Source: Candidatus Yanofskybacteria bacterium (GTDB lineage Bacteria; Patescibacteriota; Minisyncoccia; 2-02-FULL-40-12; GWA2-44-9). From it: a stretch of 64,000 nucleotides of DNA. This document shows positions 878 to 60,452 of this stretch, piece by piece. The notes under the pieces were generated by a model. The model saw nothing but the letters and a program-made list of their open reading frames with translations. It was not told where the DNA came from and searched no databases. Both the position numbers and the translations under genes were made by a program. The stretch lies in the NCBI GenBank assembly GCA_020847715.1, contig JADLBM010000007.1:8624-72623 (forward strand). Reading direction: 5' to 3'. How positions within the stretch are numbered: the first letter of the stretch is position 1; the number at the start of each line of letters is the position of its first letter.

Positions 878-3745
878 TCAGACCGGCTTGGGGAGGAACT
901 TCCGCCAGTCGAACTGACGCGGATTTGCGAACCAGTCCCTGATTTGGTCGTACATCAGGGAGCGCACGAGGACGGGGCCGTCCTCGGGTCCACCGGTCGG
1001 GAGGCCGATGAACAGCACGCCCGTGTTGTTGGGCGGGAACCCACGCTCACCGTACAGGTCGGTGTGCGTGTTCGCGGGACCCATAGCGTAGATGGCGTAC
1101 GGGGTGATGATCTTGTTCTTGAAGTGCTTGTCACCGTACGTCTTCAGGGTGACGCGCCCCGTCGCATGGCCGAAGGAGTCGCCACGGGCGCGGTCGTTGT
1201 TGACCACGGCCGACAGCGGGTCCGACCAGCTCGAGAGACGCGCAGGAGACGCGAGGAACGTCAGTCCCCACTCATACCCACCAGGAGCGCAGACCGTGCC
1301 AAGCGCGAAGTACTCGTTGCTGTACAGCGGCGCGAGCACATAGCGATCGAGGAACGCCTGCTGGTCCTTCCAGTGGGAAAGCCCCGCCAGCCGAGCGCGG
1401 AGGTACTGTGCGTAGAAGACACCTTCTGTGAGCGTGTCTTCGACGGACGCCGCGAAGTGATTCCCGCAACCGATGTTGAGGATGCCGACGTCGCGCCCAT
1501 CGTACGGAATACCGCGAATCTCACTGAGACCGCGGATTGCCAGCTTGGAGCGCTGAGAGCGACGGAGCACCGAATCGAAGAAGTCCAGGTTGGGGTCGAT
1601 CAGCCGAGTGAACACTTCCAGCATTTGCGGCTGAACCCAGTCCAGACCTCGAATGAGGAACTGGCCGAGGTCGAACCGCGCGGCATCCACGGTGAGCTGC
1701 ATGACCGTGGCCGAGTCGCCCCGCTTCGCAGCGTTCCCGATTTCGTCGTGGCGCTTGCGCCACCACTTCTCGATCTGATCATACGACATCTCGCCCGGAT
1801 CGGGCTGCTTGTGTGTGTCGTAGTGATTCCCCTGCGTCGGGTCATCGTTGACCGTCAGGAGGTGAATCGGGAAATCGTTGCTGTCGAGGATGCCACCGCG
1901 GCGCATCATCATGACGACCGCCTCGGATACGCCGAGGTTGCGATGCGTGGTCGCGTCGAAGATGTGCTCACGAGAGCGGCTGCCCATGTGGATGTCCGTC
2001 ATCTCGACGGTCCAGATGTAGCGCGTCTCCGGATACGGGTAGTACCCGGGAATGACCGCCTTCGGCCGCTTTGCCTTCGGGAGGTGCTTCAGGTGGACGC
2101 TGTTGTCCAACTTCGCGATGGGGAACGAGTCTCCCGTCACGATGCCGTTGACGCGCTGGAGGACCAGTACGCCAGGGCAGAACTGCTCGGACTTCAGCAC
2201 CTTCGAGATGGGGTGCACCGCCTTCGTGGAGCCACGAAGCTCCCCGCGGAGGAACGCCTCGTCCACACAGATGGGAGCCACGTGCACTTCGGATGAGTCG
2301 CGCTGACCCATTGTGTAGTGATCGCGACCGACCATCCGGTGGTTCAGAGCGTACGGGTGGCAGATGACCGCAGTGTGCGGCACAGCTCCGCGGTACGCCT
2401 TCGCACCGAACTCGTCTACGAAGGACGAAAGGAGACCATCGGTGACCTTGATGTTACCCGGGATGTGAACCTCGATGGGATCGTAGTCGCCCACCTTGAC
2501 GTGGCTAGTCCCCTGCCCAATGACGCGGCAGTTGGGAATGACCTCTTCCAGCTTCTTCGCGAGCAGGGCGCGGAGTCGCAGACGGCGCCGCTCCAAATCC
2601 TGGTCACTGACGTTCGTGATGATGGTCATCGCAAGCTCTTCAGTGAGCTCGCGCAGGTCCTGTTCGTACTTCGCGATGTCGATGGCGGCCTGACGCCGAT
2701 CCGAAGCGCTCCTGCTGTTGAGCATGCTGTACGCCCGTGCCAACTCACGCTTCGTGAAGCTGATGTGGGCTTCGAGCTGCTTCCGCTCCAAGAGCGTGAT
2801 GTAGCGCACCTCGTAGTACGCCGCCGTGTTGATGAGCTCCTCCTCGACGTAGCCGAGGGGATAGAGCACGGGACCGCTGAACTCGGGAGACCCGTCAGGA
2901 CGGTGTGTGATCTTGTGCCACGCGTCCAGGAACCCCAGGAACTTCGCCTCGAGAGGCATGAAGATGACCTCGTCGAGCGGCTTACTCCTGAGGATGCGTC
3001 GCGCCTTCGCCTGATACGAGGCGGGCAGATGCTCGACCTTCACATGAAGGCCTGAGACCTGGGCGCGGTATGTCTTGATGGGACCAGCGGCCTTCTTGAG
3101 GTCCATGGACAGGCCGTTGGTAATCACGACGCACGCATCGCCTCGCTTCTCGGCATCCGACAACGCCCGCCGGACCGGATTGTCCTTGATCAGGCGGTTG
3201 TGCTTGATACCGATGAGGCCACCGTTGACGAACGCGACCGTCCAGTCCGCCCCTGCGGGCACGACGAACGGGTTCGCGAAGCTGGATTCAGGAAACTCGA
3301 AGAGCTCCGCGTCCGCGGCGAGATCCTCCGTGGACAGGCGCCCCATGCCGGCGATGAACTTCGCCGATGCGTGGGCATTCGTGACACCCGTCAGGAACTT
3401 CGCCTTCTTGGCGAACATGTCCTCGGGGATGTACGCGTAGTACTTCTTCCGGAACTCGTCCAACGGAATGTTGGTCCGAATCGCACGCTTGAGCGCATCG
3501 AGCGCCTGCGTGGTCCAGATGAGCTTCGGCAGTCGACCGATGAGACCCTGCTTCGAAAGGCGCAGGCCTCCGGTCAACTTCTCGACGAATTCGGTGCGGA
3601 GTGTCTGTAGGATCGACTCCAAGCCGCCCTTGCGCAGCAGCGCACCCGACTGGATGAGCTCGCGGCAACGGGACTCGAGGCCTTGGATCCTCCAGACGTC
3701 CTTCGCCGCCGAACCGTTTCGGTGTGACGTCTCGGCCTTTGCCAT
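878..3745 (-). CDS. Large hypothetical protein (955 aa) with calcineurin-like metallophosphoesterase motifs in the C-terminal half; N-terminal about 550 aa unassigned
   Basis: Single uninterrupted 955-aa ORF with diverse composition and GC-rich third positions; motifs TDIHMG...GNHYDTH and a second GCGNHF resemble DxH...GNH(D/E) of metallophosphatases; the overlapping + strand ORFs (863-2296, 2318-3055) are R/D/V/L-rich, typical antisense artefacts. Confidence 0.6.
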   Translation of the reverse strand: MAKAETSHRNGSAAKDVWRIQGLESRCRELIQSGALLRKGGLESILQTLRTEFVEKLTGGLRLSKQGLIGRLPKLIWTTQALDALKRAIRTNIPLDEFRKKYYAYIPEDMFAKKAKFLTGVTNAHASAKFIAGMGRLSTEDLAADAELFEFPESSFANPFVVPAGADWTVAFVNGGLIGIKHNRLIKDNPVRRALSDAEKRGDACVVITNGLSMDLKKAAGPIKTYRAQVSGLHVKVEHLPASYQAKARRILRSKPLDEVIFMPLEAKFLGFLDAWHKITHRPDGSPEFSGPVLYPLGYVEEELINTAAYYEVRYITLLERKQLEAHISFTKRELARAYSMLNSRSASDRRQAAIDIAKYEQDLRELTEELAMTIITNVSDQDLERRRLRLRALLAKKLEEVIPNCRVIGQGTSHVKVGDYDPIEVHIPGNIKVTDGLLSSFVDEFGAKAYRGAVPHTAVICHPYALNHRMVGRDHYTMGQRDSSEVHVAPICVDEAFLRGELRGSTKAVHPISKVLKSEQFCPGVLVLQRVNGIVTGDSFPIAKLDNSVHLKHLPKAKRPKAVIPGYYPYPETRYIWTVEMTDIHMGSRSREHIFDATTHRNLGVSEAVVMMMRRGGILDSNDFPIHLLTVNDDPTQGNHYDTHKQPDPGEMSYDQIEKWWRKRHDEIGNAAKRGDSATVMQLTVDAARFDLGQFLIRGLDWVQPQMLEVFTRLIDPNLDFFDSVLRRSQRSKLAIRGLSEIRGIPYDGRDVGILNIGCGNHFAASVEDTLTEGVFYAQYLRARLAGLSHWKDQQAFLDRYVLAPLYSNEYFALGTVCAPGGYEWGLTFLASPARLSSWSDPLSAVVNNDRARGDSFGHATGRVTLKTYGDKHFKNKIITPYAIYAMGPANTHTDLYGERGFPPNNTGVLFIGLPTGGPEDGPVLVRSLMYDQIRDWFANPRQFDWRKFLPKPV

Positions 3746-3860
3746 TGTGCTTCTCCTTCATTGTCAGAGAACAACGCCGAAACTATACCAATCTATTTCA
3801 CCCCGACAACTTGACGAAACATAAGAAAATGCGGGTGGCTTTCGCCACCCGCACCAAGCG

Positions 3861-5093
3861 CTATGCGGTCACCGCGACGGCCTTCACCGTCTTCGGCTTT
3901 TCGTCCATCACCGCACCCGACAACTGCTCCGTCTTCATCGCCAAGTTCTGGCCAATGAGACTGCCTCCGGCGTTGCCGACGATGTAGGGCGCTGCCTTCT
4001 CCGCCGTAATCGTCCCCTGTGCAAGGGAGTGCATGCACAGGTACCACACACCATTGGAGAACACCGAGGTCCACGCGAGGTACTGCGGACTGTTCCGCTG
4101 GCGGGCGCGGCTCACCATCGTGAAGCTCACTGCCTGCCACGCGGAAACCGCCAACAGAAGGAGTGCCGGCTTCCAACCAGCAAACCCGAAGACCAGCACA
4201 TGGACCACCAGAATGAACGCAAGCGCCTGCAGCTGCGCCACGGGCCATTGCACCTTGGCGCCGGCGGTCACATGTGCATCGAAGGTCGCCTTCAGCTTCT
4301 TCCCGAGATCCTGCCCGACATTCGCACCGATGAGCGAGCCGATGATGCTCCCCGTCGTAACGGGCAGGAACAACGCCCAATCGAATCGGTTGCTAATCAT
4401 GATGAACAGCTTCAGGAAGGCAACGCCGATTTGGAAGACGACTGCACCCGCGTGGAACCAGTAGTGATCGGTGCTTCGCGCGACGCGGAGAAGTGAGAAT
4501 GCGAAGCTTTCCACGACGGTCAGAAGAAGGAGTGCGGCAAGCAGGCCCCTGCCGAACGACGGCGCGCTCAGCATCATCTGCGCCCCAAGCGCGGCGCTTA
4601 GGAGCGCGACCGTCGGCCACAGTTTCATGAGCTGCGGCCGACCCTTCGCGCCCTCCGCAGACAGCCCCAGCGCGGACTCGATTCTGATCGAGAGCGTGTT
4701 CGCATGCAGCGTACCGAGAATGGTCGCAAACACGTATGGCGCCAAGAGCGCCGGCGGCAACTCGTTTCGCACCAGCAACCGTAGCGACCAGAAGAATGTG
4801 AAGCTCGCTGCCAGCGCCGCGAGCACGTGGTAGGCATTGCTATTGCGGTTCGCGGAACGCGACTGAAGGCCATACGCCGTGTTCTGGAGGTACGCCAGCC
4901 CCATCACAGTGATGGCTGTTAGCGGGAGCCACAGTGCGGGATGGAGCTGCACGAACTGAACTAGATGACCGTAGGTAGTCCGAAGCTCCTCGAAATGAGC
5001 CTTCGAGAACACGCCGAGCTGCGCCGCGACAACGCCGCCAATCAGCCACAGCGGATTGATGTTCCACAACCTCGCACCGAGACGAGTGAGCAT
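3861..5093 (-). CDS. Polytopic integral membrane protein (10-12 predicted TM segments), unknown function
   Basis: Long hydrophobic ORF; start placed at Met66 of the listed ORF (MLTRLGARLW...) because the upstream extension translates a noncoding tandem DNA repeat. Confidence 0.55.
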   Translation of the reverse strand: MLTRLGARLWNINPLWLIGGVVAAQLGVFSKAHFEELRTTYGHLVQFVQLHPALWLPLTAITVMGLAYLQNTAYGLQSRSANRNSNAYHVLAALAASFTFFWSLRLLVRNELPPALLAPYVFATILGTLHANTLSIRIESALGLSAEGAKGRPQLMKLWPTVALLSAALGAQMMLSAPSFGRGLLAALLLLTVVESFAFSLLRVARSTDHYWFHAGAVVFQIGVAFLKLFIMISNRFDWALFLPVTTGSIIGSLIGANVGQDLGKKLKATFDAHVTAGAKVQWPVAQLQALAFILVVHVLVFGFAGWKPALLLLAVSAWQAVSFTMVSRARQRNSPQYLAWTSVFSNGVWYLCMHSLAQGTITAEKAAPYIVGNAGGSLIGQNLAMKTEQLSGAVMDEKPKTVKAVAVTA

Positions 5094-9876: not shown

Positions 9877-10524
9877 CTACTCTCCCTGCGCAACCGCGGC
9901 GGCGGCATCTTTGTCAGCTTGCTCCCGACGGCGACGAGCTCGCTCAAGTCGCTTGGCAAGCTGTTCATCGTCAGGAGTCAACTTGGCTGCCGCCTCCAAC
10001 GCCTCAACGGCATCGGGGTAGTTCTGCAATCGGAGGTACACCCGCGCGAGGTCGCTGTAGAGTTGGGCATCCTTTGGATTCTGAGCGATTGCCACGATGA
10101 GCCGCTGCTCCTCCTGTCGAAGCTGTTCGGGATCGTCCATATCAATCTCATCGGTGTCGGTCTCTTCCTTTGCCTTCTCCAATTCCTGCGCAATCTCAAT
10201 GCGCTCCTGCTGCTTGGCCGTCTCTTGATGCACGCGCCGTACGCTGCGGATAACCTTGTCGGACGCACGATCGAGCGCCGACATCAGCAGGCGCCCACGC
10301 CGGAGGAGCTTCTCGAACTCGACGAGCACCGTGTGCACGTACTGACGCCACGGAATCGTGCTGACCCGCTCCACAACCTCCGGTGCGAAGTCGTGGAAGA
10401 TGGTCGTACCGACCTCGTGCGCTTCGGGCGTTAGCTTGCGCAGGTACGGCATTTTCCGCCATACAATGACGGCCGCCCCGATGAAGGCGACGAAGGCAAG
10501 TGACAGCGGGATGATGAGAAACAC
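9877..10524 (-). CDS. Membrane-anchored hypothetical protein with acidic coiled-coil and TPR-like C-terminus
   Basis: N-terminal TM (MFLIIPLSLAFVAFIGAAVIV), charged helical region; starts 3 nt after the tsf stop, so probably co-transcribed. Confidence 0.55.
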   Translation of the reverse strand: MFLIIPLSLAFVAFIGAAVIVWRKMPYLRKLTPEAHEVGTTIFHDFAPEVVERVSTIPWRQYVHTVLVEFEKLLRRGRLLMSALDRASDKVIRSVRRVHQETAKQQERIEIAQELEKAKEETDTDEIDMDDPEQLRQEEQRLIVAIAQNPKDAQLYSDLARVYLRLQNYPDAVEALEAAAKLTPDDEQLAKRLERARRRREQADKDAAAAVAQGE

Positions 10525-10527
10525 GGC

Positions 10528-10980
10528 TTAGCCGATAACGAGCACCGAAACACCGGCGAGCTGAATATTCTCGCCGAGCTTGGCAATCGCCTGGTTGATG
10601 ACATCCTGTACCGAGAGCGACGGGTCTTTCACGAACGGCTGAGTAAGCATCTCCGCAGCATCCGTAGGACGCATCGCGCTAGCGTGCATTGCCAGATCGC
10701 GCGCGAGTGCTTTGAAGTCGTCGTTGCGCGCAACAAAATCGGTCTCACAGCCGAGCTGGACCATAGCGCCGATCTTCCCCGTGCTGTGTACATAGGAACC
10801 GATGGCGCCGTCCTTGACCTCGCGCTCGGACTTTTTCGCCGCGGCCGCGCCTGCCTGTGAACGCAGCACGTCGAGTGCGCGCTCTTTATCGCCTCCCGCC
10901 TCGTCGAGGGCTTTCTTGATCTTGTCGAATGAGAGTCCGGTCTCGTCGCGAAGCTCCTTGATCAGTTCAACAGTGCTCAT
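10528..10980 (-). CDS. tsf: Translation elongation factor Ts (short, about 150 aa form)
   Basis: MSTVELIKELRDETGLSFDKIKKALDEAGGD...; UBA-like N-terminus and EF-Ts core; ATG at 10980 preferred over the TTG at 10989. Confidence 0.85.
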   Translation of the reverse strand: MSTVELIKELRDETGLSFDKIKKALDEAGGDKERALDVLRSQAGAAAAKKSEREVKDGAIGSYVHSTGKIGAMVQLGCETDFVARNDDFKALARDLAMHASAMRPTDAAEMLTQPFVKDPSLSVQDVINQAIAKLGENIQLAGVSVLVIG

Positions 10981-21194: not shown

Positions 21195-22061
21195 TTATGG
21201 ATGAATACGGTCCGCCATGAAGAGGCGGCATTTTGCCTCGACCACATCCCGCACGGCGTCGGCCGCCGGCCCAAGGTATTGATACGGGGTCGTCTGGTCG
21301 GGATGCTCGACCAGCTCCTTTTTGAGCTCGCGCTGGTATGCAACGCGAAGCTCGGTGTTGAAGTGCACATTCGTGATACCCGCACGGATAGCGTCAGCAA
21401 TAGGCGCGTCCGGAAGACCTGATGCACCGTGCAAGACGAGATAGGTATCGGGAACGGCCGCGGCGATAGCGGCGAGATGGTCGATATCGAGCTCTTCCTT
21501 TTGCTCGGTCACAATGCCGTGAATGTTCCCGAATACCGGTGCAAGCCGCTCAACACCGGTGCGGCGTACGAAATCGGCCGCCTGTTCCGGCTTTGTGTAG
21601 TCCTCGCGGCTCACCGCTACGCGCGTCTGGACTTCCGAACTCCCACGAAGATGCCCTAGCTCCGCCTCTATCATGTAGGAGCCGCGTTTCGTCTGGGCGT
21701 ACTGCCACACACGCTGAGTCTCGATGACATTCACCTCATAGGCAAGTCGCGAGCCATCGAACAGCACGGAATCGTATCCGGCGTCGATAGCCTCTTTGCA
21801 TGCCACGAAGGATTTGAAGTGGTCGGCGTTCAGGAACACGGGAAATCCGGAAGCTGCCCGTACCGCATGCACGAGCGCCACCGCCTCTCGCATACCCAGA
21901 AACCCCGCCTCCCCTTCGCTTGTGCCGACAATGACGCACGGAGCACCGGCATGCGTCGCGCCCTCAACAATGGCGCGGAGAACATCGGGCGTGGCGAAAT
22001 TGAAATGGCCAATGGCCCATCGCTCCGCCTTCGCCTGTGCGAAATAGTCTCGCAACATCAT
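21195..22061 (-). CDS. fba: Class II fructose-bisphosphate aldolase family protein
   Basis: WAIGHFNF...LNADH...VLHGASG...NVHFNTE, typical of class II FBA/tagatose-bisphosphate aldolase. Confidence 0.85.
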   Translation of the reverse strand: MMLRDYFAQAKAERWAIGHFNFATPDVLRAIVEGATHAGAPCVIVGTSEGEAGFLGMREAVALVHAVRAASGFPVFLNADHFKSFVACKEAIDAGYDSVLFDGSRLAYEVNVIETQRVWQYAQTKRGSYMIEAELGHLRGSSEVQTRVAVSREDYTKPEQAADFVRRTGVERLAPVFGNIHGIVTEQKEELDIDHLAAIAAAVPDTYLVLHGASGLPDAPIADAIRAGITNVHFNTELRVAYQRELKKELVEHPDQTTPYQYLGPAADAVRDVVEAKCRLFMADRIHP

Positions 22062-23350
22062 GACGTGTGGTTGTACCCGTTTCCCAAGATGATAAAGCCG
22101 TCCACGATGTGCTCATCGATGAGCTCCTGCATACGCTCCCGTCCCATGTATTCCACGAAAATCTTGTTCCAGAGCGCCTCCTGCTGGTGGTAGAGGTACT
22201 GCGAACGAGCCCCCTCACCGTGCACCAGTGACATCAGGAGGTCGATGAGGTCGAAGCTCACCAATTCCTTCTTGCCGCTGGCCGGATCAACAAACTCCTC
22301 GCCGATGAAATCAAGACCGGTCCACCACCCAAGGTCCAGCCCGCCGTGGTCGCGGCCGAGAATGCGTGACAGGCGACTCAAGTCGTCCTCCGCCCGCCAC
22401 CAGTGGTCGGCCTCGGGATTCACGTGAGGCTCGCTCAGTCGAGCATCTGTCGGGTCCTTCTTTGCCAGATACTGCTGAACGATGCGCCATGTCATCCGGC
22501 CATGGTTCGGCATCGGAGCGCTCGAAACATCTCCACGCAGAAGACTCTTGAAGATGGTCCCGAAGTCAGGATGGCCCATGTGCCGCCGGAACAAACTTGA
22601 GTAGAACGGCACCTCATGCAGGTAGTGCAGCATGAGCGTGAAGAGACGGAGCGTCGCACCCTTCCCTTCGATATCCGCCGGAATAACGAAGATGATGCCG
22701 AGCTCCTTGAGGTGCGAGACATTGTGGTACTTCTTTCGGAGAAACTTCTCGGCGACCTTCAGCCATTTCGTATCGAGCACTAAGTGATCCACTTCGCGCT
22801 CTTCGAAATCGTCCGGCGTCAGGTTACTGTATGCCTCCTCGAAGAACCGATGCATCCACTCGTCGGTCTGGGTGAATCGAAGTGACACCATTACCGACGC
22901 GAACCCTTCTCGGTCGATGAGGTCTTTTACGGTGGCGTAGCCGAAGTGCTCGAGGAGGTTTGTCGGCGGATGTTTCTCGAGGAGCGCGGCCATACGGTCC
23001 CGCTTTAGGAAGAGCCCCGGAGGCGGGACGAACACCTTTGCCACCGTGGCGCACAGCTTCGCGCACGCTTCTTCCGGCTTGGTAAGATCGGGACGGTCCA
23101 GCAACTCATAGAGGTGGCCGTCCAGATGCCCCAATCGCTCGATGAGTGCCGCACGAACCGCCTCGGCGCCATCTCGCCGCGTAACGCCAAGCCCTGCAAG
23201 CGTACGGTCGACGGTTACATCGATTTGCCGCGCGATGTCCTCAAAGACGCCTTCTTGCCCGGTAATCGCGTTCATCTTCTGCTCCACTGCGAGGAGCGTC
23301 TCCGGAGCGGCGCGCATCAATCGCGCAAGCTTATTGAAAGGGTCGCGCAT
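22058..23350 (-). CDS. Hypothetical protein (about 430 aa), unknown function; stop overlaps the fba start
   Basis: Long ORF with normal composition; start placed at MRDPFNKL; no motif recognised. Confidence 0.5.
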   Translation of the reverse strand: MRDPFNKLARLMRAAPETLLAVEQKMNAITGQEGVFEDIARQIDVTVDRTLAGLGVTRRDGAEAVRAALIERLGHLDGHLYELLDRPDLTKPEEACAKLCATVAKVFVPPPGLFLKRDRMAALLEKHPPTNLLEHFGYATVKDLIDREGFASVMVSLRFTQTDEWMHRFFEEAYSNLTPDDFEEREVDHLVLDTKWLKVAEKFLRKKYHNVSHLKELGIIFVIPADIEGKGATLRLFTLMLHYLHEVPFYSSLFRRHMGHPDFGTIFKSLLRGDVSSAPMPNHGRMTWRIVQQYLAKKDPTDARLSEPHVNPEADHWWRAEDDLSRLSRILGRDHGGLDLGWWTGLDFIGEEFVDPASGKKELVSFDLIDLLMSLVHGEGARSQYLYHQQEALWNKIFVEYMGRERMQELIDEHIVDGFIILGNGYNHTS

Positions 23351-23870
23351 AGTCCCCTCTAGTATACCGCTTCTGCGGTTGGGCGGTGTGCACAAAAGGC
23401 CGATTTTCGGGGGACTTGACAATATTATCACAAAATGCTATCCTACTCTTACCACGTTCGGGCCAGACTCTCTGCAAGTCCGTTGGCTAGAAGGCGTGGC
23501 TAAAAGTGTCTCCGCTAAGCAAGCGAGGCCGCAGTGCCTCACAGGAAGCATCTCGTACGAACGCGCGGTGCATTTCGTTAGCACGTGCGCTCGGATTCCC
23601 GAAAAGGGAACCACGCCCGCCATCGATCGTCAGCTGGAGGCCGCCCACAAAGCATTAAGCCCTCCTCGCTGAAACGGAGATGGAGCAACGGGCAAACCCA
23701 TGACTCCTTTCTCAAGGAGTCCGAAAGGGACGAAGACGTCATGCCGGTTCAACCGCAGACGCGTAAGCGGCACCGGAGAACAGCGATCCCGAGTAGATGA
23801 CGCCACAAACGAGGCGGGAATACTATTCCCAAATCATGTGGCGTCTTTCATTTTTGGGCATACCCTGGTA

Positions 23871-23900
23871 CTTGACTTAAAATAGGCATCATGGTATGAT
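23871..23900 (+). promoter_or_regulatory. Strong sigma70-like promoter (TTGACT-18-TATGAT) driving a noncoding transcript
   Basis: TTGACT 23871-23876, TATGAT 23895-23900; nearly identical in -10 context (GGTATG.TATGAT) to the promoter at 25326. Confidence 0.55.
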
Positions 23901-23906
23901 GCTCTC

Positions 23907-24040
23907 GTGGAGGTTCGGACTGGCTGGCGCCAGACCTGGCCCGTCCTGTCGAGGGATGTCTTAGCCCATCCTACCGACCAAAGGACTGCGTTCTGCGGGT
24001 CGGCAGCCCCAGGCCCGGACCTCCACACCCGCTCTTTTTT
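23907..24040 (+). ncRNA. Candidate structured small RNA (about 135 nt; identity unresolved)
   Basis: Predicted TSS opens with GUGGAGGUUCGG, which pairs with CCGGACCUCCAC at 24015-24026 closing a roughly 110-nt domain with internal hairpins; T6 tract at 24035-24040; no credible ORF across 23351-24278. Confidence 0.3.
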
Positions 24041-24232
24041 CATCATCTTCCCATCGTCCCCGGAGAGCGCCTCCGCGGACCCCCCGGCGTAGAGGAGTAC
24101 AACACCTCTACACTCCTCTGAGGACTGGAGCCGCGGCTGCCGACCGCGATTACGGAAGCGTTCCTCAGAGGACCTGTCCACACGGAGACCCGCGTGGAGC
24201 ATGTTCACCTCCTTCTACGGACGGTGCAGTAC

Positions 24233-24275
24233 GGACTGTTGCGAAAAGCCAGGATATCGCAACAGTCCTTTTTTA
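24233..24275 (+). terminator. Strong + strand intrinsic terminator
   Basis: 12-bp perfect stem GGACTGTTGCGA...TCGCAACAGTCC followed by TTTTTT; on the minus strand the hairpin is preceded, not followed, by the A/T run. Confidence 0.65.
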
Positions 24276-24278
24276 TAT

Positions 24279-25262
24279 TCAGAGTTGCGTACGCGTGACG
24301 GTGACCGGCGGCCACGGACCAATATCCCCCGCTTTCAGGATACCCGCCTTCGCGCCGTACTGCATGACAACCGCAGTCGCGTTCGCTGTACCGAACTGAA
24401 TTGCTTTTTCGATAGCACCGGAACGGATGAACTCCGCCAGAAATCCCGCATGGAAAGCGTCCCCCGCCCCTGTGCGCTCAACAACGGCACCCTCGGGGGT
24501 GCTTGCGGTATACCGAGCCGCTCCATCGGACACGGCGACCCCCTGTGCGCCTCGCGTCATGACGCAGATACCTCCGATGGTTGCGTCCAGCTTTGCGAAC
24601 AGATCGTCGGGCTTTTCATAGCTAATACCCGTGAGCTGGGCGGCCTCCTCCTGATTCATGCCGACAATATCAAACGACTTCCAAAGCGGCGCAAGCTTCT
24701 CGAGTCCCAGCGCAAGCTCCCCCGGCCCCGGATTGGTAGCGAGGTGGGCACCCGTGCGCTGGGCGAATGCAACGATACGCTCAAGCATATCAATGCTCCC
24801 CCCGAGAGAGTTCACATACAGCCATTTCGCAGAAAAACCATTCCACGGGATGCGGTCGGCATCCCAGTGCGCGCCTTCGCCGGTGTAGGAGAGGATGGTG
24901 CGCTCCCCACCATCTCCAACGAGAATGGCGGAGTAGGCGGTGATGTCATCGTTCCGAACCTGCATGTACTTCCCGTCCACGCCCTCGCGACGGAGCTCGT
25001 CGAGAATAGCGGAACCGTTCGCATCGCTCCCGATAACACCGATGCAGGCGGTGCGATACCCTTGCCGTGCAAACGTGACGGCCGCATTTGTGCCGCCGCC
25101 TCCCGATGCGAACACGATCTTCCGCACTTTCACTTTAGAACCGAAGGGAAGGCAGATGCCCTTCCCCGTCGGGAACTGCTCACCCCCAACAACGCGGAAC
25201 GCATCCGCGCTGAAGAGTACATCTTGGGTCGCCGACCCGATTGCAACGATATCGTAGTTCAT
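24279..25262 (-). CDS. pfkB-family carbohydrate kinase (ribokinase-like)
   Basis: AIGSATQD...SGGGGTNAAV...; C-terminal TGAGDAF anion-hole motif of pfkB kinases. Confidence 0.85.
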   Translation of the reverse strand: MNYDIVAIGSATQDVLFSADAFRVVGGEQFPTGKGICLPFGSKVKVRKIVFASGGGGTNAAVTFARQGYRTACIGVIGSDANGSAILDELRREGVDGKYMQVRNDDITAYSAILVGDGGERTILSYTGEGAHWDADRIPWNGFSAKWLYVNSLGGSIDMLERIVAFAQRTGAHLATNPGPGELALGLEKLAPLWKSFDIVGMNQEEAAQLTGISYEKPDDLFAKLDATIGGICVMTRGAQGVAVSDGAARYTASTPEGAVVERTGAGDAFHAGFLAEFIRSGAIEKAIQFGTANATAVVMQYGAKAGILKAGDIGPWPPVTVTRTQL

Positions 25263-25325
25263 TCCCTCCGCGTGTACCCGCAGTATACCACGACTCCCCT
25301 CCTCCGGAGACCTCCCCGAGGGCTA

Positions 25326-25354
25326 TTGACAGTATATTATTGGTATGCTATGAT
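25326..25354 (+). promoter_or_regulatory. Near-consensus sigma70 promoter TTGACA-17-TATGAT
   Basis: TTGACA 25326-25331, 17-nt spacer, TATGAT 25349-25354. Confidence 0.6.
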
Positions 25355-25360
25355 GTCTGT

Positions 25361-25829
25361 GCGTCGCTGGAGCTGAGTCTCCCGTCACGCGCGGCTCTTC
25401 GGGGCCACACAGGAAACGACCAGTGTTCGACCGGCAGTAGAAGCGCGCTAAGGAGGCGCAACGCCCTTGCACGAAACGAGGGACCCGGCGACCTGTCCGG
25501 TGTGCCACAGGGAACCCACGGTATCCTAGCAAAGTCGGCGATGACCCCACGCGTCGGCGTCGGGCGAGCCACTCGAAGGATGAAACGTGGAGGGTGGGAC
25601 CTTGAAAACCCAACGAATCATGTCACCACTCCTGTGGTGACGAGTTGCCTAACGGTAAGCTAGTAGGAGCCTCACTCCCAATGGAGTGTATTAAGATAAG
25701 GCTTGCGAACGCGCGTACCCAGAGGCAACCACGCCCCTCGAGCCCAACATCGACCGAAGGCTAGCGAGCTCCTTGAGAGCTGCGCCGCCGAACCGGAATC
25801 CCTTGGCCCACTCGAGGGGCCTTTTATTT
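25361..25829 (+). ncRNA. Candidate stable noncoding RNA, about 470 nt, possibly RNase P RNA (tentative)
   Basis: No credible ORF in a roughly 600-bp gap between convergent-orientation genes; strong promoter upstream and hairpin GGCCCACTCGAGGGGCC + TTTTATTTT at 25804-25829; many local hairpins (UUCG-capped GGCUCUUCGGGGCC, GUCACCAC-UCCU-GUGGUGAC). Loose resemblance to type-A RNase P elements: hairpin then AGGAAACGACC (cf AGGAAAGUCC); GGAUGAAACGUGGAGGGUG (cf GGGUGAAANGGUGCGG); CCUUGAG...GCCGAACCGGAAUC (cf CUUGAG...ACAGAACCCGGCUUAUC). Confidence 0.35.
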
Positions 25830-25871
25830 TCGGTATCCGTCCGAAAATATCCTGAGCCAGTAGGCGAAGGA

Positions 25872-26510
25872 TTACACCGCTGAAGCAAGCTCGGAGAGCG
25901 CCCGCGCAGGATCGGCCGCACGCACAACATAGCTCCCGCTCACGAGAATGGATGCGCCAGCCATCGCGCATGACGATGCGGTCTGCGGCGTGACGCCACC
26001 GTCGGCAATGATGGTGATATCGGGATGCGCCGCTTGAAACTGCCGCATGCGCTCAAGCGCCTCCGGCACGAACGCCCGCCCCTGCTGGCCGGGGTGTACC
26101 GTCATGAACTGCACAAGGTCCGCGCTCGCCGCAACGGCCTCGAGCCGCTCGAGTGGGGTTTCCGGATTTATAGATACTCCGAGCTTCTTTCCACACTCAT
26201 GTGCGTGCCCTGCAAGCTCTGGGAAGCTTTTTGTCGCTTCGATATGTACAAGGAATCGGTCTGCACGCGTCGAAGTGCACCAGTGTGCGCACGCGAGCTC
26301 TGGCCGGGACACCATAAGGTGCACATCAAACAGGATAGGCGTCTCCAGTCGCGCCAGCTCCTCGTATCCTTTGATGGTGCGGGTCGGCACGAAGATGCCG
26401 TCGCAGACATCGAGATGCGCGCGCGTCACCCCTGCCTGCTCGAAGATGCGCACCAGCCGAACGAGCTCGGCTTCGCTCTCAGTGAGAATGGCGGGGATGA
26501 TGTCGACCAC
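25872..26510 (-). CDS. rpe: Ribulose-phosphate 3-epimerase
   Basis: AHLDVCDGIFVPTRTIK...FDVHLMV...VHPGQQGRAFVPEAL...IADGGV. Confidence 0.85.
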   Translation of the reverse strand: MVDIIPAILTESEAELVRLVRIFEQAGVTRAHLDVCDGIFVPTRTIKGYEELARLETPILFDVHLMVSRPELACAHWCTSTRADRFLVHIEATKSFPELAGHAHECGKKLGVSINPETPLERLEAVAASADLVQFMTVHPGQQGRAFVPEALERMRQFQAAHPDITIIADGGVTPQTASSCAMAGASILVSGSYVVRAADPARALSELASAV

Positions 26511-26514
26511 AGAA

Positions 26515-26955
26515 TTATTGGCTATCGATTTTTCCGATGCGCCGAATGTGGCGTTCCTCGTTCGAGAAATCAGTGTCGAGCCAGAGCTTGAGCATTTCCT
26601 TGAACTCGTCGCCCACGAATGCTGCCCCGACGCTCAAGATGTTCGCGGCATTGTGTTCCCGCGACATCATGATGATATCCTTCGGCCCGCCGTAGTAGAC
26701 TGCGGCACGCACACCGCGTCGGCGATTGGCGACCATCGCCTCCCCCTGCCCCGTCGCCCCCAGCACAATGCCGCGGTTGTTCACGGGGTCCTGCGCGACC
26801 TTCTCGGCCGCAACTGCAACAAAATCGGTGTAGTCGTCGTTCGAATCAAGCACGGCATTCCCACAATCAACGAACTCGAGATGCCACTGGGTGAGCCACT
26901 CCTTGATGCGCTCTTTCAGCGCGTATCCCCGATGGTCGGTAGCGAGGTAAATCAT
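26515..26955 (-). CDS. rpiB: Ribose-5-phosphate isomerase B (RpiB/LacA/LacB family)
   Basis: MIYLATDHRGYALKE...VDCG...GIVLGATGQGEAMVANR... Confidence 0.85.
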   Translation of the reverse strand: MIYLATDHRGYALKERIKEWLTQWHLEFVDCGNAVLDSNDDYTDFVAVAAEKVAQDPVNNRGIVLGATGQGEAMVANRRRGVRAAVYYGGPKDIIMMSREHNAANILSVGAAFVGDEFKEMLKLWLDTDFSNEERHIRRIGKIDSQ

Positions 26956-26969
26956 ACGAATAGAGAGGA

Positions 26970-27884
26970 TTAGAGCCGGTTAATGTACTGCACCGCGGAG
27001 AGCGCCGCCGCAGCGCCTTGGCCGGCGGCGATAATAATCTGCTTGTGCGCGCTATGCGTGACATCGCCGGCGGCAAAAAGCCCTGCGACGCTGGTTGCGC
27101 CGTCGAGTCCTATGGCAATGTAGCCGAACGCATCCTTTGTGCACTCGGGCGGCACCATCTGCGAATTGGGTGTTTGCCCGATGTGCACGAATGCGCCATC
27201 CATGTCCACCGTGTGCTCCACGCCGGCAGCATCTTTGTACTTCACACCCTTTGCAAGCGCGCCGTCGCCGATGATTTCCGTGGTCATGGCACTGTAGAGG
27301 ACTTCAATCTTCGGGTTCGAGGTCACCTTTTCGATGAGTGATGCCTCGCCCTTGAACGCGGGGTTTTTGTTGATGACCGTCACATGGGAGGCGATGTCCG
27401 CAAGCATGAGCGCGCTCTCAAGCGCGGAGTTGCCACCGCCGATGGTCACTACGCGCTTCCCCGAAAACAGCGGACCGTCACAGACGGTGCAGTACGACAC
27501 GCCCTTCAGGCGATAGGTATCTTCACCCGGAACCCCCAGAAGCCGCGAGTGCGCGCCCGTCGCTACGAGGACCGCCTTCGCACGGTACGGAGCGCCATCG
27601 TCGGCGGTCACCGTGAACATGCCGTCTGCATCCTTCACGATGCCGGTCACGAGATACCCCTCCTTGATTTCAGGCTTGTAGCTCTCGATGTGCTCACGGA
27701 ACATCTGTGACAGTTCGATGCCTGTCGTGTGCTTGATGCCCAGCCAGTTCTCCACTTCACCGGAAAGCGCGACCTCTCCGCCTAAATCTTTTGCAATAAC
27801 AAGAAACTTCAGACCGCGCCGCGCCGCGTAGATGCCGGCCGATGCTCCCGCGGCGGAGCCGCCGATAATGATGAGGTCATACAT
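26970..27884 (-). CDS. trxB: Thioredoxin-disulfide reductase
   Basis: MYDLIIIGGSAAGASAGIYAARRGL..., redox-active CTVCDG, second Rossmann GGGNSALE. Confidence 0.9.
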   Translation of the reverse strand: MYDLIIIGGSAAGASAGIYAARRGLKFLVIAKDLGGEVALSGEVENWLGIKHTTGIELSQMFREHIESYKPEIKEGYLVTGIVKDADGMFTVTADDGAPYRAKAVLVATGAHSRLLGVPGEDTYRLKGVSYCTVCDGPLFSGKRVVTIGGGNSALESALMLADIASHVTVINKNPAFKGEASLIEKVTSNPKIEVLYSAMTTEIIGDGALAKGVKYKDAAGVEHTVDMDGAFVHIGQTPNSQMVPPECTKDAFGYIAIGLDGATSVAGLFAAGDVTHSAHKQIIIAAGQGAAAALSAVQYINRL

Positions 27885-27956
27885 ACGAACAAAGTATAGC
27901 AAACCGATGTAAAAAAGAACCCCCATCCGAAGATGGGGGTCAACCGTCGGAGTCGC

Positions 27957-28589
27957 TCAGAGGTCCTGAGGACGCACGACGAACGAGATGCCGAGCGAGG
28001 AGGAACTTCCACGACGCCACGCACCGTCCTGCAGGTACTTTCGGGACGCGGTCCCGACCGTGCCTCGCAGGAAGACGCTGCCACGGAGCGGAAGGTCGTG
28101 GCTCCACAGGAACGCCCATCCCTGCGTGTGGTTGGGCGCCTCCGCGTCGGTCGCCACTTCACCGCCGTAGCGGACGGAGAACTCGTCGCGATGCGGTCGG
28201 CGCGTGGCAGTCTTTCCGTATCGGGCGCAGAGCCCGATACCACCGTCGGCCCACCAGGTCTTCTTCGTCCAGACGGTCGCATCCGAGAGGATGCGATGCC
28301 CGCCGACGACCACGAAGAGGCTGGGGCCGATCCAGTGCCGCAGATCGGCGCTGACCGTCCACTGATGGCCACCCGGCGTCCCGACCTTGTCGAGCTCGGA
28401 GCGCTTCACGGCGGCCGAGAGGTCGAAGAGGCCGAGGGCCTTGCGTCCGCTGAGGCCGAACGCCGCCTGCGTGCCGTCCTGCCCCATGTTGTCCGTGGTC
28501 TGTACCGCGGACCCGACGGAGAACTCCGTCTGCGCGGCAACGGGCAGGGCCATCGCCAGCACCGAGACACCCAACACCAGAACGCGCAT
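27957..28589 (-). CDS. Secreted hypothetical protein with signal peptide
   Basis: AAGGAG RBS 6 nt upstream of the ATG at 28589; MRVLVLGVSVLAMALPVAAQ signal peptide; beta-strand-like alternating pattern; unknown function. Confidence 0.55.
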   Translation of the reverse strand: MRVLVLGVSVLAMALPVAAQTEFSVGSAVQTTDNMGQDGTQAAFGLSGRKALGLFDLSAAVKRSELDKVGTPGGHQWTVSADLRHWIGPSLFVVVGGHRILSDATVWTKKTWWADGGIGLCARYGKTATRRPHRDEFSVRYGGEVATDAEAPNHTQGWAFLWSHDLPLRGSVFLRGTVGTASRKYLQDGAWRRGSSSSLGISFVVRPQDL

Positions 28590-55359: not shown

Positions 55360-56952
55360 CTAATTGCCGTTGCGTTTGATGCCAATGTTCTCGACCTGAT
55401 CGCCTTCTGAAAGCCCCGAAACAATCTCGACCATTCCATCCTGTCCTCGCAGCCCGAGAGTGACCGAAACTTCCGCAGCATCGTTGCCAATCAGCTTCTT
55501 CACAAATGCTCCCCGCTCATCTTCGAGAATCGTAAACTGCGGCAGCAAGAGAACCGCATCGCGCCGGGCTGATTCAATATCAAGATTCGCCGTCAACCCG
55601 CTCTTCAGCATCGCGTTCGGCTCATCGAGCAGGATTGTCACCTTGAAGTTCACGACGCCATCGATGACAGTCTCTGCGGGGTCGATGAATGTCACATGTG
55701 CGGCAAGCGTCTGTCCGGGGAGCGCATCGACGGTAAGACTGACCGGATTCCCGATCATCAAGCGTCCAATATCCACCTCGGGAACATTCGCCTCAATCTC
55801 AAGCTCTTGGTCCGAAATGACCGCAACAAGCGCCTGACCGGCAGTCGCCGTTTGCCCAACCTTCGCATCTTGCTTTGTAACAATCCCCGCCATCGGACTC
55901 CGGATGATGTTCTTCGCAATCTGGGCTTGTATCCGCTGAACTTGTGCCTCAGCAGAAAGGAGCGCCGCTCGCTGAACATCCACCTGTTCGGGAGTTGAGC
56001 CTGCTTTCGTAAGCGCCAGCTCACCCTCGACGCGCTCGACCGTAAGGAGGTTCGTCGTGATGAGCTGGTCCTGCGTGTTCACGGAGGTGAGCGCAGCAAC
56101 AACACTCGCACGACCCGTGTTTACGTTCGTCCGGTATGTCTGAAGGGTCGTGGAATCCACCTGAACGCTGTTATTGTCGAGAATGTTCTGCACAAGCGTG
56201 AGAAGATCCTTCGCCGTCTGAAGGTATCCTCGCGCATTATGAATAGCCTTCACGAGGGCCTCCGGAGATCCGCCGAGAGCGACGCCGCTCAGTTCTTGTT
56301 GCCAGCGATTCAAGGCAACCTCAACGCTCACCCGCTTTGACAGCGCATCGCGCTGGAGCTGATCGCACGCACACGTGAACGCGAGCTGGTACAACGGGGC
56401 AGCCTCGCTCCCGACGCTGAGAAGAATCTGCGCGGTCTGGATGCGCACGGCATTATCTGTCTTGGTGTAGGCATCGAGGAGCACATCGTATACGTTCGCA
56501 TATGCATTCTCGAGGTCTTGCTGGGCCTGCCGCAATTCGGACTCCTTGATTGTGACCTCCTCCGCTCGGCCACCTCCCGCGAGCTCCTGAAGCTTTGCCT
56601 GCTGAGCGAGCACATTCGCCTGCGCATCTCGAAGCTGGGCATTCAACTCGGCGTTATCAAGACTCGCCAAAATCTGCCCAGGAACAACCCGATCGCCAAC
56701 TTTCGCACCAGCCACGGCGATGCGTCCACCATTCTGGAATGCAAGCTGAACATCCTGCGTCGCCTTGACCCGACCCGTCACGGAAACGATCTGCCGGATG
56801 GATCCGCGAGTCACGGAAATAACGCGGTCCGCCCCGTTTCCCCCTCCGGACAACGCGGCAGCGATGACAATGAGAAGGATGATTGCACCCGCACCTGCGG
56901 CGATGCGCTTGCCACGGGAAAGACCGATGAAGAACGCGAGAATGTTTTTCAT
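55360..56952 (-). CDS. Efflux periplasmic adaptor (HlyD/MFP family)
   Basis: N-terminal TM, long coiled-coil, beta-barrel/lipoyl-like segments; first gene of the MFP-ATPase-permease operon. Confidence 0.85.
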   Translation of the reverse strand: MKNILAFFIGLSRGKRIAAGAGAIILLIVIAAALSGGGNGADRVISVTRGSIRQIVSVTGRVKATQDVQLAFQNGGRIAVAGAKVGDRVVPGQILASLDNAELNAQLRDAQANVLAQQAKLQELAGGGRAEEVTIKESELRQAQQDLENAYANVYDVLLDAYTKTDNAVRIQTAQILLSVGSEAAPLYQLAFTCACDQLQRDALSKRVSVEVALNRWQQELSGVALGGSPEALVKAIHNARGYLQTAKDLLTLVQNILDNNSVQVDSTTLQTYRTNVNTGRASVVAALTSVNTQDQLITTNLLTVERVEGELALTKAGSTPEQVDVQRAALLSAEAQVQRIQAQIAKNIIRSPMAGIVTKQDAKVGQTATAGQALVAVISDQELEIEANVPEVDIGRLMIGNPVSLTVDALPGQTLAAHVTFIDPAETVIDGVVNFKVTILLDEPNAMLKSGLTANLDIESARRDAVLLLPQFTILEDERGAFVKKLIGNDAAEVSVTLGLRGQDGMVEIVSGLSEGDQVENIGIKRNGN

Positions 56953-59930: not shown

Positions 59931-60452
59931 ATGGCACCACTCAATATCCATCCGTTGTTCGTGCACTTCCCCGTAGCGCTCCTGACGCTTGCCGCGCTCC
60001 TTGAGCTCGTCCGCTTCCAAAGACTCCTCCAGCGATCCTATCTGTTCTATACAAAAGCGTTCCTCGTCATCACGGGAACGATAACTGGATTCGCCGCGTT
60101 CCAGACGGGTGAACTCCTCGAGCATCTCTACGATGGCACCTCAACGGCGCGCGTGGTCGAACTCCACGCAACCCTTGCGAGCGCCACCCTCGCGCTCTTC
60201 GGGATACTCTCAGTCTTCTACATCACCCAGTGGCTTGAGCGAGAACAGCTTCTTCCACGGCTGCGCCACATGCAGCTCTTCCGCATGCTCCACGCGCTCG
60301 GCCAGCGCGTTACCGGAACAAGCTTCGCGTATCTCACCGGTGCCGCAGGACTCCTGCTCATCACGCTCACCGGCGCACTCGGCGGCATCATCGCATACGG
60401 ACCGGACATCGATCCGGTTGCGTCGTTCGTGTATCGTCTCCTCTTCCGCTAG
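59931..60452 (+). CDS. DUF2231-like membrane protein
   Basis: MAPLNIHPLFVHFPVALL... four-TM pattern of the DUF2231 family. Confidence 0.55.
   Translation: MAPLNIHPLFVHFPVALLTLAALLELVRFQRLLQRSYLFYTKAFLVITGTITGFAAFQTGELLEHLYDGTSTARVVELHATLASATLALFGILSVFYITQWLEREQLLPRLRHMQLFRMLHALGQRVTGTSFAYLTGAAGLLLITLTGALGGIIAYGPDIDPVASFVYRLLFR

Follow-up and report, generated by a model that had tools for sequence, protein, structure and literature searches.

Stand-alone noncoding RNA (ncRNA) genes of bacteria, among them lineage-restricted ones such as that of Ms1 in Actinobacteria, carry their own sigma-70-type promoter and intrinsic terminator, contain no open reading frame (ORF), and lie between protein genes while remaining separate from the transcript of those genes. 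Their RNAs have extensive predicted structure, and their sequences evolve too fast for homologues to be detected by similarity. In this work, we describe a unit with these same features, here called unit T, in a 64-kb window (the whole stretch of DNA analysed, from contig JADLBM010000007.1) of a metagenome-assembled genome (MAG) of Candidatus Yanofskybacteria, which belongs to the Candidate Phyla Radiation (CPR, or Patescibacteria). The name designates the flagged plus-strand unit inside the 609-bp gap between rpe and a kinase gene. Unit T differs from the described genes in its size, ~470 nt being more than most regulatory small RNAs reach, and in having neither synteny conservation beyond one species nor an identified partner protein, seed region or target.

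Two further kinds of RNA gene are relevant to this locus. In 10 of 35 circular CPR genomes, the RNase P RNAs fell below Rfam cut-offs (Lui et al., PMC8172020), and tRNA genes of Patescibacteria may be split by group I introns, some of them invisible to both RF00028 and ARAGORN (Nakagawa et al., PMC13011429). A first-pass annotation, made from the sequence alone, had proposed that the gap holds a divergent RNase P RNA or, as a fallback, another structured RNA. It is the fallback that our analysis upholds, since the unit runs from promoter to terminator, is noncoding and rich in hairpins, and has a little evolutionary support for one helix. On balance, unit T is probably a stand-alone structured ncRNA gene of one species-level Candidatus Yanofskybacteria lineage, acting as RNA.

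Promoter, Terminator, and Extent of Unit T

The promoter of unit T lies on the plus strand and is composed of a −35 hexamer TTGACA (25326-25331), a spacer of 17 nt, and an extended −10 element TGcTATGAT (25346-25354), in which the TG occupies 25346-25347 and the hexamer TATGAT 25349-25354. The near-consensus promoter reported by the first-pass annotation is thus confirmed, with 11 of 12 positions matching the consensus in addition to the TG. We counted three matches to the strict pattern TTGAC-N15-TGNTATNNT in the 64 kb, where 0.01 would be expected. These matches, at 23416, 23872, and 25326, all lie on the plus strand within 2 kb and are antisense to the surrounding gene array; the units that they head (A, BC, and T, respectively) are free of ORFs.

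We also found the T block, together with a gene-free gap of 610 bp, in two Logan assemblies (L015 and L016) at 97.5% identity. As these assemblies come from different sequencing runs, unit T is not an assembly artefact. Five substitutions separate the promoter of the window from that of L015/L016 and all of them fall in the 17-nt spacer, of which the part ahead of the TG (25332-25345) has a hypervariable patch at 25332-25343, while the −35 hexamer, the TG, and the −10 hexamer are unchanged.

At the other end of the unit, a terminator domain (25733-25830, plus strand) may adopt either a perfect 10-bp helix (25733-25742/25811-25820) or a local 5-bp hairpin (25805-25821). In either form, a GC-rich helix is directly followed by the U-tract CUUUUAUUUU (25822-25830), in agreement with the canonical hairpin and T-tract noted previously. 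The tract is retained as UUUUUAUGUU in L015 despite two changes in the tail. It is overlapped by an AU-rich 9-bp hairpin, UAUUUUCGG/CCGAAAAUA (25825-25849), located just beyond the rpe stop.

Placing the start of the RNA 7 nt past the −10 element and its end within the U-tract gives a predicted transcript from 25361 to ~25830, without ORF support or Rfam match, and the earlier estimate of ~470 nt was accurate. The gap in which it lies had been described as some 600 bp free of ORFs; it measures 609 bp (25263-25871), is bounded by the start of the kinase gene (25262) and the stop of rpe (25872), two minus-strand genes, and holds 2-9 stops in each of its six frames. With its own promoter and intrinsic terminator on the same strand, and no ORF between them, unit T has the features by which a stand-alone ncRNA gene is generally recognized.

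Predicted Structure and Covariation

The plus strand of unit T folds with z = −2.8 (1 of 100 shuffles being as stable), versus z = −1.4 for the minus strand. In the minimum free energy fold, local stem-loops follow one another and no long-range core is formed. Near its 5′ end stands a tetraloop hairpin, GGCUC-UUCG-GGGCC (25393-25406), which is invariant in both distinct sequences at our disposal, and it is followed by the hairpin CCCUUG-cacgaaa-CGAGGG (25464-25482), with a pairing probability of 0.96, and by a long irregular hairpin domain (25516-25590). Next comes an 8-bp stem, GUCACCAC/GUGGUGAC, closed by a UCCU loop (25622-25641), again with a pairing probability of 0.96; this stem and the UUCG hairpin are the two that the first-pass annotation had named, and both are present. 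A second long hairpin domain (25644-25729), made up of helices 25644-50/25723-29, 25654-57/25716-19, and 25667-72/25699-704 with an apex at 25673-78/25683-88, precedes the terminator. Three substitutions (25692, 25694, and 25696) are located in a predicted internal loop of this domain.

The 8-bp stem carries two compensatory double substitutions. From the window to L015/L016, the pair A25628-U25635 is replaced by G-C and the adjacent C25629-G25634 by U-A, so that pairing is kept in both cases. Placing the nine substitutions at random yields two or more compensated pairs with P ~1e-4, and sliding the observed four-site cluster anywhere along the unit yields them with P ~1.5e-3. The covariation check recommended by the first-pass annotation recovered two compensated pairs in one stem and one broken predicted pair elsewhere, in a comparison of only two distinct sequences.

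Unit T as an Insertion between rpe and the Kinase Gene

All genes of the array around unit T are co-directional on the minus strand, and the unit itself runs against them on the other strand. The array comprises a trxR-like gene (26970-27926), rpiB (26515-26955), rpe (25872-26510, supported by Pfam), the gene of a 327-aa PfkB-family kinase (24279-25262, also supported by Pfam), the gene of a 430-aa protein (22058-23350), and that of fructose-bisphosphate aldolase (21195-22061). The kinase is identical to the NCBI protein MCC6404882.1, encoded on a contig of 94 kb, and all its relatives come from Patescibacteria MAGs; MCC6405203.1, a kinase 88% identical to it, belongs to another lineage. The 430-aa protein, which has no Pfam or NCBIfam match and is divergently placed beside unit A, keeps its syntenic place between the aldolase gene and the RNA units across several loci of Paceibacteria. 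A crude ORF map, unreliable at such GC content, leaves further apparent gene-free gaps of 460-700 bp at 10101-10801, 27927-28386, 55838-56327, and 59945-60448.

We compared the locus with 14 more distant loci, of which 12 cover the rpe/kinase junction and have kinases 54-71% identical to that of the window. The order trxR-rpiB-rpe-kinase is kept in every relative compared. In 10 of the 12, rpe ends 0-40 nt ahead of the kinase gene and an extended −10 element of the kinase (TGnTATAnT) sits on or beside the rpe stop codon. In the window, the corresponding element, TGGTATACT, lies at 25282-25290 on the minus strand and, given its position on the rpe stop codon in the relatives, marks the left edge of an inserted block. 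Because rpe adjoins the kinase promoter in those relatives, unit T is an insertion of ~575 bp between the rpe stop and the kinase promoter (25290-25282 in the direction of the minus strand). It is absent from the junction in all 12 of the more distant relatives that cover it. Genome and metagenome scans for closer relatives each returned nothing above 79% identity, and unit T is known from a single species-level lineage, represented by the window and L015/L016.

The same junction has received other sequences. Two relatives (L003 and L010, positions 3580-4000 in each) carry there a different insert of ~420 bp, in which a hairpin of ~120 nt, whose 14-nt ends are perfect (GATAACTAGCCCTT...AAGGGCTAGTTATC), precedes the gene of a 94-aa free-standing GIY-YIG nuclease (Pfam E = 6.6e-18). 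In L001, which is JADZAY010000006.1 of the nearest genome outside the T-bearing species, the junction holds 256 nt (positions 1-256, where the contig ends) that resemble neither rpe nor unit T; the kinase strand of this sequence is G-rich and contains GGAGGAAAGACCC, similar to conserved region I (CR-I) of RNase P RNA. The L001 sequence was considered as a truncated RNase P RNA gene and rejected, as it has no Rfam match at E<=10. Overall, insertions seem to recur at the rpe/kinase junction.

The GIY-YIG cassette and unit T are alike in being extra blocks (420-575 bp) that interrupt a conserved operon at one and the same junction, each with a prominent hairpin. They are unlike in content, the cassette encoding a 94-aa GIY-YIG protein and unit T nothing recognizable, and the two share no similarity, so that unit T is not a decayed copy of the cassette. 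Nor does it appear to be a mobile element with terminal repeats, as neither terminal inverted repeats nor a clear target duplication were found. A foreign origin was likewise rejected, since the GC content equals that of the flanks and no phage or plasmid matches. The reading that best accommodates these data is that unit T is a structured RNA gene, acquired recently and transcribed independently, located at a junction that hosts insertions in other lineages.

A Functional RNA or an Inert Relic?

If unit T is such a gene, the housekeeping sigma factor and RNA polymerase would transcribe it from ~25361, transcription would terminate at the U-tract, and the resulting RNA of ~470 nt would fold into a string of about eight stem-loops. 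This RNA would act as such, most plausibly in trans, in a protein-binding or regulatory role, and would be neither translated nor a universal ribozyme. We favour a role in trans because an internal stem, and not only the promoter, appears to be preserved. CPR bacteria have very small genomes with little noncoding DNA, which makes it unlikely that a 470-nt unit with a near-consensus promoter lies idle. As an RNA family unit T would be new, and yet ordinary in kind: a candidate orphan RNA gene restricted to one species.

Several observations weigh against this reading. Only two distinct sequences of unit T are available, so that the covariation amounts to one helix in one comparison. If the four substituted positions are taken as fixed and only the bases are drawn, both pairs are kept with P = 0.2; furthermore, 119 of 500 shuffles match the observed covariation value, a control that is powerless with two sequences. 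Template switching in a DNA palindrome could mimic compensation without any selection on RNA, and one predicted pair in the irregular hairpin domain is disrupted by 25551 G>A in L015. The GAAACG loop motif, present in three copies, is at chance level, as 78% of shuffles have some 6-mer at three or more copies. Homologues of unit T were found neither in the 14 more distant loci (nhmmer, blastn) nor in phage or plasmid records or viral contigs, and any complementarity to the T RNA detected by BLAST was limited to ~15 nt. The low substitution rate of the unit does not help either. Unit T differs by 2.3% between the window and L015/L016, with zero changes across its first 190 nt, and a rate-based test for purifying selection gave Fisher p = 4e-4 (7e-6 for the invariant first 190 nt). 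We discarded this test because divergence over 21195-27926 is patchy: 22 substitutions are concentrated in 26097-26241, none fall in the rpe segment 25872-26096, and rpiB and the aldolase gene differ by less than 0.7%. Such patchiness suggests recombination mosaics, in which local rate comparisons are unsafe, and the low rate in unit T is accordingly not readable as selection.

Thin evidence of selection is also what lends some weight to the view that unit T is a functionless insertion relic, with promoter-like and terminator-like signals and an RNA that, if made, would be inert. Its confinement to a single species-level lineage, the lack of homologues elsewhere, and the presence of the GIY-YIG insert in L003/L010 and of unrelated sequence in L001 at the same junction point in this direction. 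We nevertheless consider this explanation rather unlikely. The promoter hexamers and the TG remain intact next to a spacer with five changes, two pairs are compensated in one stem, and the terminator persists although its tail has undergone two changes. In addition, a relic would not readily explain the lack of terminal inverted repeats, of a clear target duplication, and of any trace of a decayed ORF, nor a GC content equal to that of the flanks.

A different possibility is that unit T works through the act of transcription itself, either by blocking read-through from rpiB-rpe into the kinase gene or by producing antisense RNA, and thereby uncouples these genes. The antisense orientation of the unit within a co-directional array, in which rpe adjoins the kinase gene in relatives, is consistent with this, as is the lack of a canonical minus-strand terminator of rpe ahead of unit T (judged by reading the sequence, and with none in the terminator list). 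However, the kinase has its own conserved extended −10 element in relatives devoid of unit T, so an insulator is not obviously needed, and the preservation of an internal stem points to the RNA over transcription alone. We regard this explanation as improbable.

Coding Potential

The first-pass annotation had named a frameshifted pseudogene as a discovery that would undermine an RNA gene, but no trace of a decayed ORF emerged from Pfam or protein searches. Apart from the stops present in all six frames of the gap, nonsynonymous changes exceed synonymous ones in every frame between the window and L015/L016, and Pfam, searched at E<=1 with the stop-free segments of every frame, gave no match. 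The longest stop-free segment, searched against 1.84 billion protein representatives, matched only a repetitive 1,256-aa protein, in 15 stretches and at 25% identity, and the longest minus-strand ORF had no candidate among 5.8 billion proteins. An independent gene caller predicted no gene in the gap in two other assemblies. Based on these stops, substitutions, and searches, unit T is neither a pseudogene nor a missed ORF. A shadow ORF of 391 aa (24201-25376, plus strand) runs opposite to the kinase gene, exceeds this 327-aa gene in length, and crosses the T promoter; at such GC content, it is a trap for naive ORF-based annotation.

Conceivably, unit T could serve as mRNA for a very small protein. 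A perfect Shine-Dalgarno-like AAGGAGG (25450-25456) lies 10 nt ahead of a UUG that opens a 20-codon frame (25467-25529, MHETRDPATCPVCHREPTVS), all within the invariant 5′ half of the unit. Both the spacing and the UUG start are poor, though, and the start codon is buried in a helix with a pairing probability of 0.96. The frame is invariant in the compared genomes, and other small frames of unit T take nonsynonymous changes (e.g., IKI to MTV at 25692-25696). As protein searches returned no homologue and a structured transcript of 470 nt is an unparsimonious vehicle for 20 codons, we consider it very unlikely that unit T encodes a small protein.

Comparison with RNase P RNA and Other Known RNAs

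The proposal of a highly divergent bacterial RNase P RNA for unit T deserved consideration, as this phylum is one in which standard models often miss RNase P RNA. Rfam thresholds frequently miss the CPR forms, from which several helices may be absent (PMC8172020). Like RNase P RNA of type A (RF00010, including the reduced CPR forms; PMC8172020), unit T is GC-rich, rich in hairpins, and of about the right size, and no RNase P RNA was found elsewhere in the window; still, 64 kb would not be expected to hold the RNase P gene of the genome in any case.

Searches against Rfam 15 found no family at the gathering score and none at E<=1 across the whole window. The region 25200-25950 alone (751 nt), searched with lax filters at E<=10, returned only noise of 10-19 bits (e.g., D12-methyl at 19 bits, with a cut-off of 57) and no match to RF00010 or RF00011. 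CPR RNase P RNAs have been recovered at bit scores down to 5 (PMC8172020), and the weakest matches listed for unit T score 10.6 bits. The Rfam search was one of the checks on which the first-pass annotation had staked the RNase P proposal, which fails it. Nevertheless, since RNase P RNAs of CPR bacteria fall below Rfam thresholds (PMC8172020), we did not rely on the missing match alone.

The strings that had been likened to RNase P RNA do exist as letters in the sequence, but matches to its conserved regions are at chance level and the required pairings are not formed. The best match to CR-I (GAGGAAAGUCC) has three mismatches, stands at an unrelated position, and is equalled in 59% of shuffles; the best match to conserved region V (CR-V, ACAGAAnnCGGCUUA) has five mismatches and is equalled in 92%. 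As originally mapped, helix P4 would join AAC(G)ACCAG with CCGGAAUC, and only 4 of 8 positions pair. As many as 253 of 300 shuffles reach the best P4-like pairing near both motifs, and 237 of 300 reach the longest helix (7 bp) between the 5′ end and the 3′ region that could represent P1.

Unit T therefore differs from RNase P RNA in lacking a covariance-model match, CR-I, CR-V, the pseudoknot-type helix P4, and P1, besides having no long-range core. Moreover, it is not conserved among relatives: it is missing at the junction in the 12 that cover it, has no homologue in the compared loci, and is inserted in one lineage only, a distribution that poorly fits a universal, essential ribozyme. On these sequence comparisons, the RNase P reading is effectively refuted, and we assign it a very small residual probability.

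Other known RNAs fare no better. As a tmRNA, unit T was rejected because ARAGORN predicted none, Rfam gave no match, neither strand has a T-arm motif, and no frame ends in a tag of the Ala-Ala type. 6S RNA, signal recognition particle RNA, and the remaining Rfam 15 families were rejected on the noise-level scores at E<=10, and a CRISPR or TIGR array because Tandem Repeats Finder reported 0 rows (minimum score 30, 23300-25950) and short direct repeats are at chance level. A tRNA or tmRNA gene split by a divergent group I intron, as in other Patescibacteria, would likewise span several hundred ORF-free nucleotides from promoter to terminator and could escape RF00028 and ARAGORN (PMC13011429), but it is barely credible here, as ARAGORN with introns allowed to 900 nt (-i0,900) found nothing in 23300-25950 (units T, A, and BC), no T-arm motif occurs on either strand, the ends of the unit show no acceptor-type pairing, and Intron_gpI and tmRNA have no match at E<=10.

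Neighbouring Units A and BC

The two remaining strict promoters head unit A (23416-23860) and unit BC (23872-24275), both on the plus strand. Unit A begins with an extended promoter, TTGACA-N-TGCTATCCT, at 23416-23444, and its ORF-free RNA of ~405 nt would extend from ~23451 to ~23855, near which a strong terminator ends. L001 has a conserved counterpart 75% identical to it, with patches rich in indels and five compensatory pairs. One patch (23504-23555) is hypervariable, including a 7-nt deletion, and differs even between genomes 97.5% identical.

Unit BC has its promoter at 23872-23900 and an RNA of ~365 nt (~23907-24275), with a strong terminator that abuts the stop codon of the kinase gene. 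We found homologues of it on the minus strand of L001 (1256-1640), L002 (4985-5388), and L008 (1538-1900). A 12-bp stem (23907-18/24015-26) closes a rod made of its first 135 nt, after which come a conserved ACCCG and a U-run; judged by eye, L002 has an equivalent stem made of different bases. In the second part, positions 24206-24214 (CACCUCCUU) match the anti-Shine-Dalgarno end of 16S rRNA exactly. Like unit T, neither unit has an Rfam match, in their case at E<=10.

Units A and BC resemble unit T in promoter type (TTGAC-N15-TGnTAT), in their orientation on the plus strand against the array, in being ORF-free and without Rfam match, in similar length (~405 and ~365 nt), and in ending at a strong terminator. 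They differ from it in distribution, since unit A is present in L001 and unit BC in L001, L002, and L008, where unit T is missing. No sequence is shared between them and unit T; a paralogous relationship to either was rejected because neither sequence nor profile comparison revealed similarity. The T promoter does resemble that of unit BC in L002 at 26 of 32 positions, but the likeness is limited to the promoter elements. Because unit A combines the same layout with five compensatory pairs, this layout marks real structured RNA genes in the lineage and, by analogy, supports the candidacy of unit T.

A broader suggestion is that units A, BC, and T, which are structured, belong to no described family, and cluster around the kinase gene, are part of an undescribed and abundant set of lineage-specific RNAs in Yanofskybacteria and Paceibacteria. 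According to this suggestion, unit T would be newly born or captured, and such genes would turn over quickly at insertion-prone junctions. We offer it as a speculative idea that is, as a whole, unlikely to hold.

Implications for CPR Genomes

A practical correction follows from this work, namely that RNase P RNA is not an appropriate annotation for the T locus. In CPR genomes, the combination of a missing Rfam match with RNase P-like strings needs to be checked against the P4 helix and conserved-region core and against the distribution among relatives. For the definition of new CPR RNA families, units A and BC are better starting material, as they are more widely conserved. If unit T is expressed, the origin or arrival of this RNA gene would have taken place inside one species, and it may thus offer a rare view of the birth of a bacterial RNA gene.

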